From Lachnospiraceae bacterium (GTDB lineage: Bacteria; Bacillota; Clostridia; Lachnospirales; Lachnospiraceae): DNA of 64,000 bases. The DNA is taken from the NCBI GenBank assembly GCA_014804795.1, contig JAAUZC010000022.1:2117-66116 (forward strand), written 5' to 3'. A program made the translations under genes and the position numbers. The notes under the pieces are model-generated. The model searched no databases. It was not told the origin of the DNA and saw only the letters and a program-made list of their open reading frames with translations. This document shows positions 8,796 through 28,969 of the stretch, piece by piece; positions within the stretch are counted from its first letter, which is position 1; each line of letters starts with the position of its first letter.

Positions 8796-8878
8796 TGCAG
8801 GAGATGGGACTTGAACCCACACATAGTCACCTACGTCAGATTTTGAGTCTGATGCGTCTGCCATTCCGCCACTCCTGC
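8796..8878 (-). tRNA. tRNA-Leu (anticodon CAA)
   Basis: Acceptor GCAGGAG/CTCCTGC, D-arm GGCGGAATGGCAGACGC, anticodon arm CAGA-CTCAAAA-TCTG, long variable arm, GGTTCAAGTCC T-loop; CCA not encoded. Confidence 0.97.
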
Positions 8879-18177: not shown

Positions 18178-19056
18178 CTATAAAAGCGCTTTCTTTACAA
18201 CAAGCACTTTCGCAATCCGCCTGTTTTCCACTTCCAGAATCTGGAACTCATAATCACCCACCATAATAGAAAATTCTTCGTTTTCTTCCGGAATTTTGTC
18301 CATTTTGGAAATCAGGAAACCATTTAGTGTATCAAATTCTTCCTCCTCAAAATCAATATCAAACCGTTCTTCCAACTCTTTCAGTTCCGACATGCCGTCT
18401 ATGACATATTCGTCCTGTCCTTTTTTCTGAATGTGGCTCTCTTCCTTATCATACTCATCCAGAATATTGCCGACGATTTCTTCCAGAATATCTTCCATTG
18501 TCACAAGTCCTGCCGTCTGCCCATATTCGTCAATTATGATCGCCATCTGTATTTTTTTCTGCTGCATCTCCTGAAACAGCGTGTCAATTTTTTTCTTTTC
18601 CGTTACAAAAAGAGCTTTTCTGAGCAGATCCGGAATATCTTTTAAAGCCATTTTCCGGTTTGCCGCAATCCGGTTCATGCGAAATGCATCCTTTAAATAT
18701 AAGATGCCGATAATGTGGTCAATGTTTTCCTCATAGACCGGAAATCTGCTGTTAGTGCCGTCCAACATATAATCTAACGCTTCTTTTAACGTCATATCCG
18801 CTTCGATTGCGGCGATCTGAGAACGATGTGTCATGATATCCCCGGCTTCCTTGTCGTTCAAGGCAAAAATGTTGGAAATCATCTCGGCTTCATCGGCCTC
18901 GATCGTTCCTTTCTCCTGCCCTTCACTGACCATCGTTAAAATATCCTCTTCAACCTCCTGCGCATTTACGCCACGTTTGCTGCCCAGTCCCTTTTTTACT
19001 GTTTTTAAGATGGTTCCCAGCCTGAAACCATCAGGGTTTCCATCTGCATCTGCCAT
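18178..19056 (-). CDS. CBS-pair + CorC/HlyC domain protein (no N-terminal DUF21 membrane domain)
   Basis: IMTHRSQI, SRFPVYEENIDHIIG, IIIDEYGQTAGLVTMEDILEEIVG, DTLNGFL. Confidence 0.85.
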   Translation of the reverse strand: MADADGNPDGFRLGTILKTVKKGLGSKRGVNAQEVEEDILTMVSEGQEKGTIEADEAEMISNIFALNDKEAGDIMTHRSQIAAIEADMTLKEALDYMLDGTNSRFPVYEENIDHIIGILYLKDAFRMNRIAANRKMALKDIPDLLRKALFVTEKKKIDTLFQEMQQKKIQMAIIIDEYGQTAGLVTMEDILEEIVGNILDEYDKEESHIQKKGQDEYVIDGMSELKELEERFDIDFEEEEFDTLNGFLISKMDKIPEENEEFSIMVGDYEFQILEVENRRIAKVLVVKKALL

Positions 19057-19095
19057 TTTCTCATCTCCCGTTTTTGATGTTTGTTCGGTTTGTCC

Positions 19096-19227
19096 GCAGT
19101 GCCCACTCGGGAAATCTGTGATTCCCCTCGTTCACGGGCTTCGCCCTATGTCCGTTTGTGGACAGGCAAAGCTTTATGCAAGCATAGCGTTACCTGTCCA
19201 CAAACGGACGCACTGCTCATTGCCGAC
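19096..19227 (-). ncRNA. Structured four-stem leader RNA candidate, copy A
   Basis: Outer stem GCAGUGC/GCACUGC, perfect 17-bp hairpin, GGGC-GAA-GCCC hairpin and a fourth short hairpin; homologous to 26724-26861 with compensatory changes; sigma-A promoter places +1 at 19227. Confidence 0.65.
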
Positions 19228-19233
19228 GTGTAA

Positions 19234-19262
19234 ATGATACCATTTATCCCTGACACAGTCAA
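19234..19262 (-). promoter_or_regulatory. Sigma-A promoter firing into leader element A
   Basis: TTGACT (19257-19262), 17 nt, TATCAT (19234-19239). Confidence 0.7.
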
Positions 19263-19281
19263 GAAAAAAGCCCTGAACCGA

Positions 19282-19623
19282 CTAAGAAGTCAGTTCAAGG
19301 CTGATTGCCAATGCTTGATCTACCCGATGCATCATTTTGTCATCCAGGTGACATACTCTGTCTTTTAACCGCATCTTATCTATTGTTCTGAGCTGCTCCA
19401 GCAAGATTACCGAATTCTTCTCCATCTGGTACTGTTCTGCGCGAAGCTCTATATGGGTCGGAAGCTTCGCCTTGTTTTGTCTCGATGTGATCGCTGCACA
19501 GATGACCGTCGGACTATGTCTGTTTCCTGTATCATTCTGCACAATAAGTACCGGTCTTACACCGCCCTGCTCGGAACCCACCACGGGTCTTAAGTCGGCA
19601 TAGTAAATATCTCCTCGTTTCAT
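19282..19623 (-). CDS. mazF: MazF/PemK (EndoA-type) endoribonuclease toxin
   Basis: [47 protein letters not shown]...KAKLPTH...[10 protein letters not shown]; start ATG 19623 after GAGGTG; no antitoxin ORF upstream. Confidence 0.93.
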
Positions 19624-19735
19624 GGGCACTCACCTCTTGAAATTTTCCTGCTGCTTTTTTACTTTGCAGGTGATATTTACAGTATTTCCCGTGGCTTTTT
19701 TTTCATACACAAAATATCAAATTTGCTTCTGAAAT

Positions 19736-20893
19736 TTATTCTGAAAGCAGATTCGCATATATGCGCGGAATCCGGCTTCCCAGATCGCAGGCAAGTTCAT
19801 AATTAAACCGTCCCGAAAGATCACCTAATTCTTCCATCGTAATATGTTCTGTGCCATCCGCACCGATAAGCGTCACCTTATCTCCCTGCACCGCTTCCGG
19901 AATATCAGTCACATCCACCATGAACTGATCCATACAAACCCTTCCAACGATCGGCGCGCGCTTTCCACAGATCAATACTTCGCCTTTTCCGGAAAGCGCC
20001 CTCGGATAGCCGTCCCCGTAGCCCACCGGTATCGTGGCGATCCGCTGCTCTTTCGCAGTCACATACGTGCCGCCGTAGCTGACCGGCGTCCCTGCCGGTA
20101 CTGTTTTTATATAGACAATGTGACTGTATAAACGGAACACAGGATGAAGCAGTGTTTTTTTTCTGTCCATTTCCTCTGACGGCCACAGGCCGTACATTGC
20201 AATTCCCGCCCGCACCAGGTCAAGTTCTGTCTCCGGCAGTTCCATAATTGCCGCACTGTTCGCACAATGCTTTAACGGGATATGCAGGGAAAGCTCCTCT
20301 TCAAGCCGTTTCGTAAATGAAGTAAAACGTTCGAATTGTTTCAGTGTACTTGTCTTATCCCTTTCATCCGCTCTGGCAAAGTGGGTAAACATTCCCTCTA
20401 TCTCCACCCCCGGCAGCCCCATTACCTGTCTCACAAAAGAAACGCCGGTATCATCCGGGAATATTCCGATCCTTGACATACCCGTGTCCACTTTGATATG
20501 CACTTTCAAACTCTTTCCCTGTCTGAGTGCTTCCGCGGAAAGTTCTTTTGCCATATCCGGTCGAAATACTGTGGGACGGATGTCCTGCGCCACAAGTTTT
20601 TCGTAACATTCGGGAAATGTATAGCCTAAAATCAGGATCGGCTTATCAAGTCCGTTTCGCCGAAGTTCAAACGCTTCCTCCGCCGTCGCCACCGCATAAC
20701 CGAAAACAATATCAAGCGTATCCAGTTTCCTCGCAAGCTGCACCGCCCCATGCCCGTAGGCGTTTGCTTTGATGACAGCCAACATCTTTGTCCCCGGAGA
20801 AAGTTTATTGTGCAGACTCTTCACATTTTCCACTGCGGCATCCAGATCTATCACTGCACATACTCTTTTATGCTCTTCCGGTATATTTTTCAT
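19736..20893 (-). CDS. alr: Alanine racemase
   Basis: AVIKANAYGHG (PLP lysine), HIKVDTGMSRIG, FTHFA, GYGDGYPR, GRVCMDQ. Confidence 0.97.
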   Translation of the reverse strand: MKNIPEEHKRVCAVIDLDAAVENVKSLHNKLSPGTKMLAVIKANAYGHGAVQLARKLDTLDIVFGYAVATAEEAFELRRNGLDKPILILGYTFPECYEKLVAQDIRPTVFRPDMAKELSAEALRQGKSLKVHIKVDTGMSRIGIFPDDTGVSFVRQVMGLPGVEIEGMFTHFARADERDKTSTLKQFERFTSFTKRLEEELSLHIPLKHCANSAAIMELPETELDLVRAGIAMYGLWPSEEMDRKKTLLHPVFRLYSHIVYIKTVPAGTPVSYGGTYVTAKEQRIATIPVGYGDGYPRALSGKGEVLICGKRAPIVGRVCMDQFMVDVTDIPEAVQGDKVTLIGADGTEHITMEELGDLSGRFNYELACDLGSRIPRIYANLLSE

Positions 20894-24891: not shown

Positions 24892-26655
24892 CTATATCGC
24901 ATCTTTCTCTTTCGGCGAAGCATTTAAAACGATAAAAAACGGAAACGCCGCCATAACAGGATACAGATAACGCAGTTGCACCGTAGGTCCTAAAAACAGA
25001 GTCAGGTAATAACCAAATACCAACATAAGCGGAATACATTTTGCAAATTTTCTGTTGATAAGCAGCCATCCTGTAAGCAACAGATAAAACCAGAACCATA
25101 CCCCGGGGACAAATAAATATTTCAGAACCGGATACTTTAAATAAGCATTGTCATTTGTCCATTTTTCCATCCGTTTCATAAGTCCGGGCCATTTGGAATC
25201 TTTGTATATTCCCCGTTCATTCAGAGTCAGCTCGTCCCATCTCGTCTGTACATAACCGCCTCCTGCCTCCTGCCCCTCCTGCGCATTAATATAAGCATGG
25301 CTCACATCTCCCGGGTATAGATAACCGGCATTCACTGCCAGCGCAGCATTCAGGTAATCACCCGGATACTGGAAAAACAGGCCCAGATAGGTGGATAGGA
25401 AATCTTTCGCCCTGTATCTTGCCACATAGGTGTTTGTATGGCTTTTGACAGGATCTGCAAAATCCGGTCTGTAATCCCGATAAGCTTCCTCTAAAATAAA
25501 GTCATTGATCAGCGCCCTGTCAGTATCCGACATAGTGCCATCGTCCTCCGGCATAACACTAACACCACCATGATAAACCATTGTTCTGGAGAGCTGTTGA
25601 ATGGGGAGGCTGAGCATCTCCCTCTTGTCCCCCTGCCCGGCACTCACTGCTCTGAAAATTCCGGACAACGCCAGATTTCCGATAAGGAAAGTTCCTGCCG
25701 CCAGAAAGAGTACTTTTCCCCAAAAAATTCTCCTCTCCTTTCCAAAAATAACTGCAATAAGTATAAAAAAAAGAAGGACAAGAAAAGCATATTTTCCGTT
25801 ATTGCGAAACAGGATCACTCCTATGCCGGCAAAAATGAATAACGGCACATAGGACTTGCGCCCATCCACAATTTCCCAAAGAGCTGACAGAAAAAGCACA
25901 AAAAAGGCGCTGAATATTGTATCTTTTGTCACGCTTATGCTCATATACTGATGAAACGGATAGAATATACAAAATAGCTGCACCAGAAACAGCCATATCC
26001 TTCTCACCTGATGTCTGTGCAGACAATACACGCCGAAGGCAAATGCCGCGGCAAGAAACAACATTTGAAACAGCGCATAACAGCCGATTCCTGTGTTGAC
26101 ACTTCCAAACACCGTTTCCCCAAGCCACATGGTGCCTTTTAACAAAAGCGTATGGGCAAGAGGATGATGGTCAATATACATGCCGGAAACAATCTGCTCT
26201 GTCTGAACCGGTATATCATATGCGCAGATGGCAGGGTAATATGCCAAAAAGGCGGGAAGCCAGGCTAAAAACTCGAAGAGCAGTGTACCCAAAAACACGA
26301 TCCACGAACTTTTTCCATCCGCCCTTTTCCAGAGCAGACATGATATTCTTCTGAAAGCCTGGTCTTTTTGACCGTTCGCATTTCTTTTGTCCTCGTTATA
26401 CATATTTACTGTGTTGACAGATTTGGCCCATCTGTAAAAAAGCAGGCAGATCAAAAATCCCAACGCTCCGCCGACAACAAAACTGATTCCCAGGATCTGA
26501 AATGTATGTCCCGCTGTCCATAGAATATTTCCCTCTGCAGCCAATTCCCGTCCCGTCAGCAGACAGAATATAAAGAAAAAACCTGTCAACCCAAATATGG
26601 TATATGCAATTGGTTTTGAAAGCAATCTGTTCTGTTTCATTTTTTCCTCATTCAT
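24892..26655 (-). CDS. DUF6020 family polytopic membrane protein (possibly GT-C-like)
   Basis: 587 aa with many TM helices; YDIPVQ..DHHPLAHTLL, TKDTIFS, LFRNNG, PTVQLRYLYP; start may be ATG 26640. Confidence 0.7.
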   Translation of the reverse strand: MNEEKMKQNRLLSKPIAYTIFGLTGFFFIFCLLTGRELAAEGNILWTAGHTFQILGISFVVGGALGFLICLLFYRWAKSVNTVNMYNEDKRNANGQKDQAFRRISCLLWKRADGKSSWIVFLGTLLFEFLAWLPAFLAYYPAICAYDIPVQTEQIVSGMYIDHHPLAHTLLLKGTMWLGETVFGSVNTGIGCYALFQMLFLAAAFAFGVYCLHRHQVRRIWLFLVQLFCIFYPFHQYMSISVTKDTIFSAFFVLFLSALWEIVDGRKSYVPLFIFAGIGVILFRNNGKYAFLVLLFFILIAVIFGKERRIFWGKVLFLAAGTFLIGNLALSGIFRAVSAGQGDKREMLSLPIQQLSRTMVYHGGVSVMPEDDGTMSDTDRALINDFILEEAYRDYRPDFADPVKSHTNTYVARYRAKDFLSTYLGLFFQYPGDYLNAALAVNAGYLYPGDVSHAYINAQEGQEAGGGYVQTRWDELTLNERGIYKDSKWPGLMKRMEKWTNDNAYLKYPVLKYLFVPGVWFWFYLLLTGWLLINRKFAKCIPLMLVFGYYLTLFLGPTVQLRYLYPVMAAFPFFIVLNASPKEKDAI

Positions 26656-26723: not shown

Positions 26724-26861
26724 GAGCAGTGCCCGCTCGTAAAACCTGCGGTTTTCCTCGCTCACGGGCGTTCGCCCTATGGAAAAAGTCAGATAAAATC
26801 TGCTTATGTGCAAGCACAACGCATCTTTTATCAGTCTTTTTCCGCACTGCTCATTGCCTAC
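26724..26861 (-). ncRNA. Structured four-stem leader RNA candidate, copy B
   Basis: Outer stem GAGCAGUGC/GCACUGCUC, 18-bp hairpin (16 pairs), GGGC-GAAC-GCCC, AAAACC-GCA-GGUUUU; same 5' sequence and junctions as copy A; +1 predicted at 26861. Confidence 0.65.
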
Positions 26862-26867
26862 GTGGAC

Positions 26868-26896
26868 ATTATAACACTTCATTTCCAAATCGGCAA
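26868..26896 (-). promoter_or_regulatory. Sigma-A promoter firing into leader element B
   Basis: TTGCCG (26891-26896), 17 nt, TATAAT (26868-26873), TG extension. Confidence 0.72.
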
Positions 26897-27061
26897 ATAC
26901 TCTTCGCACATTCTTGACAGTTTTTGCTTTCCTTAGTAAACTGGTTACTGTCCGGGACAGGCATAGAACATGTTTCGCAAAGGATTCTTATTCCGTCAGA
27001 TTCTTTCCGGCCGGAAATATGCGGGACTTCTTTTTCAGATAGACAAATGAGGTACACCACA

Positions 27062-28969
27062 ATGATTTTATCATGTCAGAATATTACAAAGGCTTTTGAT
27101 GGAAAAACCATCTTAAAACAGGCAAATTTTCATATAGAAGAACATGAAAAAGCGGCGATCATCGGCATTAACGGTGCCGGGAAAACCACGCTTTTAAATA
27201 TCATCACAGGCCGTCTGCAGCCTGATGAGGGTGTTGTCAGCATTTCCAAAGGCAAAACGATCGGTTATCTGGAGCAGAATCCCATTCTGGACAGCGAAAA
27301 CACGATTTTTGACGAACTGATGAGCGTCAAAGACTACCTGCTTCAAATGGAACGAAAGATCAGGCAGATGGAGCATGACATGAAACATAGAGAAGGTTCC
27401 GCACTGGAAGCCCTTATGGAACAGTATGCCCGTCTTACGACCCGCTTTGAGATGGAAAACGGCTATGCCTATAAAAGCGAACTGACCGGCGTATTAAAAG
27501 GGCTCGGTTTTGAGGAAGCGGAATATGAAAAACCCGTCTGCACCTTATCCGGCGGACAAAAAACAAGAGTGGCGCTCGGAAAGCTTCTTCTGCTCTCCCC
27601 CGATATCATCCTGTTGGACGAACCTACCAATCATCTGGATATGAATGCGATCCGCTGGCTTGAGGGATATCTTTCCGCTTATAAAGGCGCTGTGCTGATC
27701 GTATCCCATGACCGTTATTTTCTGGACCGCATCGCTATGAAAATTATTGAGATAGACGCCGGAACTGTCATGACTTTTGCCGGAAATTACAGCGCGTATG
27801 CACAGAAAAAAGAACAGTATCGTACGGCCAAAATGCATGCCTACTTAAATCAACAGCGTGAGATCAAACACCAACAGGAAGTCATCGACAAATTAAAATC
27901 TTTCAATCGGGAAAAATCCATTAAACGGGCCGAGAGCCGTGAAAAGATGTTAGCCAAAATAGAGGTTCTGGAAAAGCCGACAGAAGTCCGCACAGATATG
28001 AATATCAGGTTGATTCCGAACATCACCAGCGGAAAAGATGTGCTGGATATTGAAAACTTAAGCAAAGCTTTTGATAAGGAAGTATTGTTCCGAAAAATCT
28101 CTTTTTCCTTAAAACGCGGCGAACATGTGGCGATCATAGGTGACAACGGAACCGGTAAGACAACCCTCCTAAAGCTGATCAATGAACTGCTTGCGGCGGA
28201 TGAGGGGACGATCCGTCTTGGAACCAACGTTCATATCGGCTACTATGATCAGGAACATCATGTGCTGCATACGGAAAAATCCATCTATGATGAAATTTCC
28301 GATGAGTATCCGACTCTTACCACAACAGAAATACGCAATATTTTGGCCGCTTTCCTGTTTACCGGGGACGATGTCTTTAAACTGGTGGGAGAATGCAGCG
28401 GCGGCGAGCGCGGACGCATTTCTTTGGCTAAACTGATGCTCTCGGAGGCAAACTTTCTGATTCTTGATGAACCGACAAACCATTTGGATATTGCCTCAAA
28501 AGAAATACTGGAAGACGCTTTAAACGAGTACGAGGGAACCATCCTCTATGTTTCCCATGACCGCTACTTTATCAACAAAACGGCCCACCGGATTCTTGAA
28601 TTAAACGAGCAGACGCTCACCGGATATCTGGGCAACTATGACTACTATCTGGAGAAAAAAACAGAACAAAGTATTGTGCCGCAGCAGAAAAATCCTGACA
28701 CTCCTGTCATTTCTTCTGCCAAAGCAGACTGGCAGGCAAAAAAAGCGGCGCAGGCAAAACAGCGGAAACTGGAAAATGATCTAAAGAAGACAGAAACCCG
28801 GATTGCGCAGCTGGAAGAAAATATTTCCGATCTTGATACTTTGATGGCTTCCGATGAAGTCTGCCGTAACTCGGCAAAACTCGGAGAATTATCCGCCGAG
28901 CAGGGAAAACTGCAGGAAGAACTGGATTCTCTTTATGAAGTCTGGGAAGAACTGTCGGAGATGGTATAA
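27062..28969 (+). CDS. ABC-F family ATP-binding protein
   Basis: Two ABC domains (GINGAGKT/LSGGQ/LDEPTNHLD and GDNGTGKT/CSGGE/LDEPTNHLD), no TM segments, C-terminal coiled coil; start refined to ATG 27062 (GAGGT SD). Confidence 0.93.
   Translation: MILSCQNITKAFDGKTILKQANFHIEEHEKAAIIGINGAGKTTLLNIITGRLQPDEGVVSISKGKTIGYLEQNPILDSENTIFDELMSVKDYLLQMERKIRQMEHDMKHREGSALEALMEQYARLTTRFEMENGYAYKSELTGVLKGLGFEEAEYEKPVCTLSGGQKTRVALGKLLLLSPDIILLDEPTNHLDMNAIRWLEGYLSAYKGAVLIVSHDRYFLDRIAMKIIEIDAGTVMTFAGNYSAYAQKKEQYRTAKMHAYLNQQREIKHQQEVIDKLKSFNREKSIKRAESREKMLAKIEVLEKPTEVRTDMNIRLIPNITSGKDVLDIENLSKAFDKEVLFRKISFSLKRGEHVAIIGDNGTGKTTLLKLINELLAADEGTIRLGTNVHIGYYDQEHHVLHTEKSIYDEISDEYPTLTTTEIRNILAAFLFTGDDVFKLVGECSGGERGRISLAKLMLSEANFLILDEPTNHLDIASKEILEDALNEYEGTILYVSHDRYFINKTAHRILELNEQTLTGYLGNYDYYLEKKTEQSIVPQQKNPDTPVISSAKADWQAKKAAQAKQRKLENDLKKTETRIAQLEENISDLDTLMASDEVCRNSAKLGELSAEQGKLQEELDSLYEVWEELSEMV

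Follow-up and report, generated by a model that had tools for sequence, protein, structure and literature searches.

Two genes in a 64-kb stretch of DNA (the window), one for a CBS + CorC_HlyC protein and one for a DUF6020 membrane protein, are preceded by closely similar RNA structures, which raises the question of what a single RNA fold does in front of genes that have nothing in common. An earlier note on this DNA had described both structures, and it considered a cis-regulatory leader or a structured non-coding RNA, possibly the orphan Clostridiales-1 motif. The two copies, called A and B, very probably belong to a large RNA family that is absent from Rfam and forms the 5' leader of mRNAs. 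The evidence for the fold, the family and the position in the transcript is given below, together with the explanations that compete for the function of the element.

Two copies of a four-helix RNA

Copy A (19096-19227, minus strand) and copy B (26726-26861, minus strand) are predicted to adopt a common four-helix RNA fold (Table 1). The energy of the predicted fold is -70.5 kcal/mol for copy A (z = -8.25 versus dinucleotide shuffles) and -55.1 kcal/mol for copy B (z = -5.5 by the same comparison). The parts follow the same order from 5' to 3' in both copies: an 11-nt unpaired tail, a 7-bp P1, a long P2, AUA, P3, GUGA, P4, 2 nt and the 3' strand of P1. P2 stacks directly onto P1 in the predicted fold of both copies, and P3 is a 4-bp hairpin, GGGC-GAA(C)-GCCC, in each. 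The copies are 82% identical overall; their P2 sequences are unrelated. Two-sided changes that keep pairing are found at 16 of the 42 consensus pairs in the A/B pairwise alignment. These results bear out the sequences and coordinates reported previously for both copies, as well as the claim of a common four-stem fold in which a different P2 still pairs.

A sigma-A consensus scan identified a promoter upstream of each copy. The promoter of copy A consists of TTGACT, a 17-nt spacer and TG-n-TATCAT, and that of copy B of TTGCCG, a 17-nt spacer and TG-n-TATAAT. The -10 box ends 6 nt upstream of a common G in both cases. Scanning of the downstream sequence found no terminator 3' of copy A or copy B, in agreement with the earlier description of copy A as followed by the CBS/CorC gene 39 nt on without a terminator. 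Two covariance models were used in the searches, R1 built from the A + B pair and R2 built from the whole family. Neither model, run with filters off, detected copies in the 64-kb window beyond A and B, and copy B scores 141.1 bits with R2.

Table 1. Predicted parts of the two copies, their promoters and the genes that follow.
Feature	Position	Strand	Basis or remark
Copy A -35 hexamer TTGACT	19257-19262	minus	Consensus scan; -35 also kept at corC orthologue loci without the element
Copy A extended -10 TG-G-TATCAT	19234-19242	minus	Followed by 6-nt spacer TTACAC, then +1
Copy A 5' tail GUCGGCAAUGA, conserved and unpaired, with predicted +1 G (19227)	19217-19227	minus	Fold and family consensus
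Copy A P1 5' strand GCAGUGC	19210-19216	minus	Pairs with 19096-19102
Copy A P2, long hypervariable hairpin with apical tetraloop G-CUUG-C	19150-19209	minus	Fold and covariation
Copy A junction core: AUA, P3 GGGC-GAA-GCCC (19136-19146), GUGA	19132-19149	minus	Fold
Copy A P4 hairpin with symmetric tandem G.A/A.G (CGAG...CGAG)	19105-19131	minus	Fold and covariation
Copy A P1 3' strand GCACUGC (19096-19102) and conserved 3' flank GGAC	19092-19102	minus	
Gene 3' of copy A: CBS + CorC_HlyC protein	18178-19056	minus	Start 39 nt past element
Copy B promoter TTGCCG, 17-nt spacer, TG-T-TATAAT, spacer GTCCAC	26868-26896	minus	Orthologue L204: about 93% identity
Copy B predicted +1 G (26861) and 5' tail GUAGGCAAUGA	26851-26861	minus	Fold, tail unpaired
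Copy B body	26726-26850	minus	P1 5' strand 26844-26850; P2 26781-26843; AUA 26778-26780; P3 26766-26777
Copy B body, 3' part		minus	GUGA 26762-26765; P4 26735-26761; P1 3' strand 26726-26732
Gene 3' of copy B: DUF6020 membrane protein	24892-26640	minus	Likely start 26640, 85 nt past element

The fold is conserved by covariation in a large family

The family was collected using an 18-nt core, ATAGGGCGAA(N)GCCCGTGA, as the search pattern. The pattern matched one viral contig and at least 120 genome loci, and nearly all hosts among the matches listed belong to the Lachnospiraceae, for example Lacrimispora, Hungatella, Coprococcus, Roseburia and Parablautia. Cultured candidate carriers include Lacrimispora sp. 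HJ-01, Clostridium transplantifaecale Marseille-P8228, Parablautia sp. Marseille-Q6255 and Lachnotalea sp. AF33-28, and one locus (L111) is from Roseburia hominis. Nearly every listed locus contains a full-length copy that scores 50-120 bits with R1, giving more than 100 full-length copies. The length of the element is about 120-140 nt across the family.

Covariation was analyzed in an alignment of 106 family sequences. The earlier note had made covariation in a large alignment a mark of a genuine RNA element, and it is very strong: standard pairs occupy 92.3% of the cells in this model-fitted alignment compared with 64.0 ± 0.5% when partners are shuffled and 35-43% when partners are slid. Double changes occur in 37 of the 42 pairs, including 6 of the 7 pairs of P1; all P1, P2 and P4 pairs vary, and P4 covaries at 9 of 9 pairs. 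Mutual information recovers the known helices together with a C-G/U-A pair within the CUUG tetraloop and the tandem G.A/A.G of P4, which is swapped for Watson-Crick pairs in a few copies. P3 and its flanks are invariant in the alignment because they were used as the search pattern. GU/UG cells outnumber AC/CA cells by 106 to 32 (3.3 to 1), which assigns the structure to the sense strand, and the G.A pairs exist on the sense strand only.

Conservation is highest at unpaired positions, namely the tail, the junctions AUA and GUGA, and the G-G/A-A after P1. The unpaired tail has the family consensus G-N-A-R-G-C-A-A-U-G-A. A partner for the tail was sought in the 3' flank, where complementarity (2.87) shows no excess over that of shuffled partners (2.92 ± 0.06). 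An outer helix or a pseudoknot formed by the tail was rejected on this result and on the absence of a mutual-information signal outside the known helices. Pairing of the tail GCAA with the loop UUGC was also rejected; the two are complementary, but they do not covary and the contact is sterically implausible in cis. A leader peptide starting at the conserved AUG/UUG/GUG at +8 was discarded on the grounds that the length of the ORF varies, with 24 codons in copy A and 7 in copy B.

The sequence of P2 is free, its length is restricted, with the commonest values in the family at 57 and 65 nt, and the hairpin is capped by a G-CUUG-C loop. P2 was considered as an intrinsic terminator or attenuator and rejected, as at least five U residues in its last 9 nt are present in only 37 of 93 copies, with none in copy A. 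The 3' part of the element, from P3 through the 3' strand of P1, is tandemly repeated 2-5 times at 24 of 89 loci. The repeats have periods of 20-126 nt and are often 90-100% identical.

Two of these properties raise the possibility of a leader that defines a regulon. The junction or P3-P4 would be the binding site of a global RNA-binding protein or of a global signal (an ion or a nucleotide second messenger, for example), and the headed genes would respond together through Rho, pausing or decay with no classical platform. The high conservation of the junction and loop nucleotides in a framework of covarying helices would suit such a binding site, and the repetition of the P3-P4-P1' module resembles multi-site protein-binding leaders and tandem aptamers. 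This reading is weighed further against the genes that the element heads.

The element begins at the predicted transcription start

A -10 hexamer with at most one mismatch ends 4-9 nt upstream of the element in 74 of 97 full-length copies, compared with 4.2% expected by chance. The spacer between the -10 box and the element is exactly 6 nt in 66 of the 97, an extended TG is present in 55, and a recognizable -35 in 45. The first position of the element is G in 91 of the 97 copies. The 6 nt before +1 have the consensus N-T-N-C-A-C, which is conserved along with the element, and farther upstream of the promoter the sequences are unrelated between copies. Three promoterless copies start 0-5 nt past a tRNA gene, which encodes tRNA-Thr in one case (L038) and tRNA-Ala in two (L053 and L065). 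The proposal that transcription starts at the first nucleotide, made originally from copies A and B, is extended by these counts to the family, in which the first base of the element is very consistently predicted to be the transcription start.

The genes downstream were examined next to an opposite-orientation control. In 75 of 84 copies, versus 23 of 87 in the control, the next 300 nt contain the start of a co-directional ORF that encodes at least 100 aa and has a Shine-Dalgarno (SD) sequence, and the copies are thus oriented toward genes, not placed at random as a mobile DNA repeat might be. Between the element and the start codon lie 20 to 300 nt, depending on the copy. Terminators were found within 160 nt downstream in only 3 of 93 copies. 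The -10 spacing, the adjacency to tRNA genes, the downstream ORFs and the scarcity of terminators together predict that an mRNA normally starts with the element, which would be the 5'-terminal domain of whichever mRNA follows. The fixed spacing and the T-N-C-A-C motif might instead have been inherited from an ancestral cassette of promoter and element, with no selection for the 5'-terminal position.

The base at position 2 is A in 51 copies, U in 31, C in 8 and G in 3 (n = 93), meaning that G is nearly excluded. About 10% of copies follow coding genes or have no gene downstream. In the copy on the viral contig (L001), a terminator lies directly 3' of the element.

The element could also be viewed as a stable non-coding RNA or RNP component whose expression is driven by strong promoters or tRNA operons and which processing frees from the 5' end of longer transcripts, in which case transcription of the genes downstream would be read-through. 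The compact four-way junction with its 7-bp closing stem and fixed-length P2 would suit docking on a large partner, the elements have their own promoter or, in three cases, directly follow tRNAs, and Clostridiales-1, its relative, has been placed among the sRNAs and not among the cis-regulatory elements. The L001 terminator and the few copies without a downstream gene are compatible with such an RNA as well. The rest of the family behaves differently: terminators are confined to the 3 of 93 copies plus L001, 75 of 84 copies lead into a co-directional ORF, the element is not known to carry a processing signal, and the variable sequence of P2 argues against a single conserved target in trans. 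A stand-alone RNA is quite unlikely on this balance.

The genes headed by the element share no theme

Hits to 103 Pfam families were obtained among the 79 downstream proteins, without enrichment, and the most common family, DUF5711, is found in 4 proteins. The products include phosphofructokinase, class I and class II tRNA synthetases, RNase R, RNase E/G, EPSP synthase and IGPD. Others are a DnaB/DnaD-type replication-initiation protein (DnaB_2 domain), MCPs, response regulators and ABC transporters. The earlier inference of a structured RNA reused at unrelated genes holds for this set of 103 families, and the lack of Pfam enrichment speaks against the gene-specific cis-regulatory role that had been envisaged alongside it.

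An expression platform was not found: terminators are limited to the 3 of 93 copies, the distance to the start codon is variable, and alternative pairing is available in 5 of 93 copies. Switching between the GCCC of P3 and a 3' GGGC, also suggested previously, is not supported by the same evidence, as the 3' GGGC is present in only those 5 of the 93 members. A ligand-specific riboswitch with a classical platform was ruled out by the incoherent gene set and the absent expression platform. At locus L015, one promoter is followed in turn by the element, a cobalamin riboswitch (106.7 bits) that carries a terminator-like hairpin of its own, and the gene. The lack of a gene theme, the lack of a terminator platform and the copy that precedes a riboswitch point to a generic 5'-terminal leader domain.

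A leader that defines a regulon is difficult to reconcile with these findings. The headed genes have no functional theme, neither a terminator nor an SD-sequestering helix is conserved, the start codon lies at a distance that varies from 20 to 300 nt, and the GCCC/GGGC alternative pairing is not conserved. A binding site need not start exactly at +1, and orthologous genes work without the element (see below). The many copies per genome upstream of housekeeping genes and the near-universal G at +1 are points in its favor, in addition to the conserved junction and the repeated modules. This explanation is considered unlikely.

The L015 arrangement bears directly on another possibility, a processive antitermination RNA of the put/EAR type that is tethered to RNA polymerase and promotes read-through of terminators in long operons. 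Such an RNA would, like the element, be promoter-proximal, independent of gene function and devoid of an expression platform, and the element also occurs in tRNA operons. At L015, the element precedes a terminator-type cobalamin riboswitch whose terminator-like hairpin would be overridden, which argues against processive antitermination. Antitermination RNAs also need no exact +1 position, and many of the downstream units look like single short genes. This mechanism is highly improbable.

Gain, loss and exchange at orthologous promoters

Loci orthologous to the two in the window were compared. The element was not detected by either model at corC orthologues in 80 of 80 metagenomic loci with 56-88% amino acid identity. 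Most of the close corC relatives that were aligned keep the -35 (TTGACT) and the -10, followed by an unrelated 50-70-nt 5' UTR. Similarity between the corC locus in the window and these relatives ends inside the -10 box and restarts about 20 nt before the SD, indicating that the element replaced the native corC leader. Contigs of related organisms have the same 'empty' form of corC.

Syntenic orthologues of the DUF6020 gene (67-72% identity) exist in three states: with an intact element carrying a swapped P2, with a remnant, and with nothing. The element is present in L204, where the promoter, tail and P1 are about 93% identical to those of copy B, P2 is wholly different, and C-G pairs have taken the place of the tandem GA in P4. 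The promoter and the tail persist in L202 and L206, with the remnant joined straight to the start codon, which identifies both as deletion remnants; L206 additionally keeps the 5' strand of P1 and the lower 5' strand of P2 of the copy B type. L207 has no trace of the element. The states of corC and DUF6020 show a module that has been gained, lost and partly exchanged between copies. Gain and loss at orthologous promoters, the P2 swaps and the frequent tandem duplication of the 3' half all go beyond what the earlier note contained. Judged from these sequence comparisons, the element is a portable module that moves among the promoters of unrelated housekeeping genes, and the genes appear to work without it. 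The module could plausibly spread by recombination at the extended -10 box that its copies share.

Mobility of this kind is also the behavior of a selfish or neutral repeat of the REP, BOX or Correia type. The element would then have been spread by recombination, its apparent RNA structure would stem mainly from palindrome maintenance at the DNA level, and its link to promoters would come from its own -10. The presence/absence polymorphism at two orthologous loci, the wholesale replacement of P2 between orthologues with about 93% identical flanks, and the modular tandem duplication of the 3' part are all consistent with a repeat, and conservation extends to the -10 and the 6 nt ahead of +1, as though they belonged to the unit. 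Template switching at quasi-palindromes, a known mutational mechanism, could yield instant 'compensatory' changes in P2. Other features count against a repeat. The strands of P1 lie about 110 nt apart yet covary, P4 covaries too, GU exceeds AC by 3.3 to 1, and the G.A pairs belong to the sense strand only. The unpaired junction and tail are the most conserved parts, and the orientation relative to genes is strongly non-random (75/84 versus 23/87). Terminal inverted repeats are absent, the ends of the element not being complementary, and no target duplication was seen at the corC junction. A selfish or neutral repeat is very unlikely on these grounds.

Relationship to Clostridiales-1

Rfam searches at threshold detected only a tRNA in the window and no Clostridiales-1 in 18 other family loci. 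The Rfam 15 gathering cut-off for Clostridiales-1 (RF01699) is 48 bits. Copy B matches Clostridiales-1 below this threshold under permissive settings (31.1 bits, E = 3.6e-5), and copy A has no match to it at E<=10. The earlier note had looked to Rfam to judge the novelty of the structure; neither copy has a hit at threshold, and the sub-threshold match of copy B to Clostridiales-1 is the only one. Self-cleaving ribozymes, tRNA-like RNAs and Y RNAs were rejected as candidates, with no Rfam match at E<=10 for copies A and B.

Clostridiales-1 is an orphan motif published by Weinberg et al. in 2010 with no function assigned (PMC2864571). The literature that mentions Clostridiales-1 gives no function for it, and a study of transcription start sites in C. 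phytofermentans does not mention a leader of this kind. The two families are alike in their occurrence in gut Clostridia, with several copies per genome and covarying helices, and both have four stems closed by a 7-bp helix and a long hairpin capped by GUGCUUGCAC. The apex of P2 in both is YGUGCUUGCACR (UGUGCUUGCACA), followed by a 3' A-rich bulge (PMC2864571). The published Clostridiales-1 member BAAV01034327 (PMC2864571) starts UGUAAGCAAUGAGCCAUGC, which matches the tail and P1 of the new family.

The families differ in the remaining parts. The extreme 5' segment of Clostridiales-1 (UGUAAGC-like) pairs with the 3' end, whereas in the new family the tail is unpaired and P1 is formed by the 7 nt that follow it. 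Clostridiales-1 has a large branched arm as its P3, and the new family has a 4-bp hairpin, GGGC-GAA(N)-GCCC. P4 is of the type GAUUGCGGGAG...GCAAUC in the former and GCGAG...CGAGC in the latter, and the junction sequences differ too. Clostridiales-1 lies just after upstream stop codons in the handful of published members compared, whereas the new family adjoins promoters and is predicted to head mRNAs. The new family is therefore filed as a sister of Clostridiales-1 and not as a member, based on the tail without a 3' partner and the differences in P3, P4 and context. The initial guess of Clostridiales-1 was a good lead in view of the score of copy B and the shared architecture; membership in the family fails at the cut-off of 48 bits.

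Comparison with other leaders and repeats

Several families of intergenic repeats are co-transcribed with genes, including BOX in S. pneumoniae, REP/BIME and ERIC in enterobacteria, and Correia in Neisseria. The element resembles them in being multi-copy, intergenic, and gained or lost between close relatives. These repeats can also provide promoter elements and change mRNA ends, and the A-B(n)-C organization of BOX is modular with a variable number of sub-units. The element differs from them in its strict orientation, its exact placement at the predicted +1, its multi-helix junction, its conserved unpaired nucleotides and its long-range covariation.

The 5'-terminal stabilizers of mRNA are a second point of comparison, and include the 5' hairpin of E. 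coli ompA and the aprE, ermC and SP82 leaders of B. subtilis. They are gene-independent, portable and cis-acting and must occupy the extreme 5' end, properties that the element is predicted to share with respect to 5' position and action in cis. Classical 5' stabilizers need the 5' end to be within a few nt of a helix. The ompA, aprE, ermC and SP82 structures are simple hairpins a few nt from the 5' end, whereas the element spans 135 nt, is predicted to fold as a four-way junction and has an 11-nt tail left unpaired by 2D prediction. Riboswitch and T-box leaders, like the element, are structured, have conserved nucleotides in their junctions and are occasionally arranged in tandem. The element differs from these leaders in having no coherent gene set or expression platform, and it can itself precede a true riboswitch.

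Discussion

The best explanation of the element is that it is a cis-acting 5'-end domain that sets the fate of the transcript, a reading held tentatively and at somewhat less than an even chance. The folded domain would act independently of the gene on whichever transcript it heads. It may hold the triphosphorylated 5' end away from 5'-end-dependent decay by RppH, RNase J and RNase Y, or it may offer a docking site for a general RNA-binding factor. A gene-specific metabolite would not be sensed by the element in either case. The apparent need for a free 5' end at G1, which would be provided by a promoter or by the 3' end of a tRNA, points to a 5'-end-dependent process.

A stabilizer mechanism specifically is possible, although doubtful. 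The predicted free 5' end, which is always there, and the near-exclusion of G at position 2 hint at 5'-end protection. The RppH of B. subtilis has a strict requirement for G at position 2 (PMC7144940), a rule that may not hold for the Lachnospiraceae RppH. The 11-nt tail counts against protection, as it is unpaired in every 2D prediction and tertiary contacts would be needed to shield the 5' end. The conserved junction, the fixed length of P2, the P2 apex and the repeated P3-P4 modules suggest a specific partner, beyond a simple stabilizer.

A broader proposal is that the element represents a new class, a portable, promoter-coupled, cap-like 5'-terminal RNA domain that would spread by recombination at the -10 box and give the mRNAs it heads a common post-transcriptional fate, either through 5'-end-dependent decay or through a dedicated factor. 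Clostridiales-1 would be the version of this domain that lies at the 3' ends of genes. This proposal as a whole is somewhat unlikely. The interest of the element lies in the strength of the constraint on it, its coupling to predicted transcription starts, the breadth of the genes that it heads and the existence of natural alleles.

The predicted 5' ends, the natural alleles with and without the element at corC and DUF6020, and the P2 swaps amount to natural experiments that make the function directly testable, and they give the 16-year-old orphan Clostridiales-1 a testable context. Lachnospiraceae are among the most abundant bacteria of the human gut, and their RNA biology is almost unexplored. 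A single constrained RNA fold is predicted to head the mRNAs of many of their unrelated housekeeping genes at the exact predicted start. Should the element prove to control mRNA stability or to bring in a general factor, it would add a new level to the global regulation of genes, and it could be used directly as a portable 5' UTR part in the engineering of gut Clostridia.

Variation in the hairpins

The orthologous counterpart of copy B at the L204 DUF6020 locus shares ~93% identity with it in the promoter, 5' tail and P1, whereas the two P2 sequences are wholly unlike and C-G pairs in the L204 P4 take the place of the tandem G.A of copy B. This juxtaposition suggests that gene conversion or turnover of the palindrome replaced the hairpin, as opposed to a gradual drift of its sequence. 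Two other DUF6020 orthologues (L202 and L206) carry the element reduced to its 5' part. The tail is retained in L202, and the tail, the P1 5' strand and the lower P2 5' strand are retained in L206. In both, the start codon is joined directly to the remnant. The A-rich P2 arm occupies the place expected for the SD.

Contigs of other organisms from two sequencing runs, X10 and X8, match the conserved parts of the copy A region, with very short inserts between these parts in the contigs. P2 is replaced by 8 nt in the X10 metatranscriptome contig, and P2-P3-P4 by 26 nt in X8. The element therefore has natural mini-variants. In 24 of the 89 family loci, tandem repeats (2-5 copies, periods of 20-126 nt, identities often 90-100%) comprise either the whole 3' module, from P3 through P4 to the P1 3' strand, or shorter stretches of it that end in CACUGC-GGA.

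Constraints in the 5' tail

G is nearly excluded from RNA position 2 of the family alignment (3/93 copies). Nearly every copy has AUG, UUG or GUG at positions 8-10, with A in 84, U in 8 and G in 1 at position 8 and U9 and G10 in 89/93. The length of the ORF after these triplets is not conserved.

Genomic settings

A MazF/PemK-type toxin gene ends in a 15-bp terminator hairpin immediately upstream of the copy A promoter, and an alanine racemase gene lies farther upstream. An ABC-F (Uup/EttA-like) ATPase gene is transcribed away from the copy B promoter, and in relatives, too, it is syntenic with DUF6020, MscS and a Rex-like gene. The only Rfam match at threshold across the window is a tRNA whose variable arm is long.

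Table. Regions with element copies, conserved positions and neighboring features
Feature	Location	Strand	Remark
RNA position 2	window 19226; 26860		copies A; B
RNA positions 8-10	window 19218-19220; 26852-26854		copies A; B
Conserved parts matched by the X10 and X8 contigs	window 19210-19230; 19126-19149
MazF/PemK-type gene	window 19269-19629	minus	115 aa, E = 6e-37
Alanine racemase gene	window 19736-20893
ABC-F gene	window 26924-28969	plus
tRNA	window 8796-8878	minus	59.2 bits
Copy B counterpart	L204:1330-1457; counterpart of window 26726-26861
Remnants	L202:1288-1512; L206:1344-1512
3'-module repeats	e.g. L073:2194-2400; L072:7690-7920; L021:7637-7770
3'-module repeats	e.g. L007	minus
Element	L038:2693-2770		after tRNA-Thr
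Element	L053:6837-7045		after tRNA-Ala
Element	L065:2944-3152		after tRNA-Ala
Element	L001:1-197		IMG/VR viral contig
Two-domain leader	L015:4770-5340
Element	L015:4805-4938		first domain
Cobalamin riboswitch	L015:5050-5247		106.7 bits
Terminator-like hairpin	L015:5313-5338

Three copies (L038, L053 and L065) begin 0-5 nt 3' of a tRNA gene and lack a promoter, so tRNA 3' processing could produce their 5' ends. The sole copy found in the viral collection (L001) looks like a stand-alone small RNA, since a strong terminator-like hairpin and U-run follow it directly. At L015, one promoter precedes both the element and a cobalamin riboswitch. The element comes first after the promoter, followed by its partial repeats, the riboswitch and a terminator-like hairpin ahead of the gene. 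The two structured RNA domains thus share a single leader.
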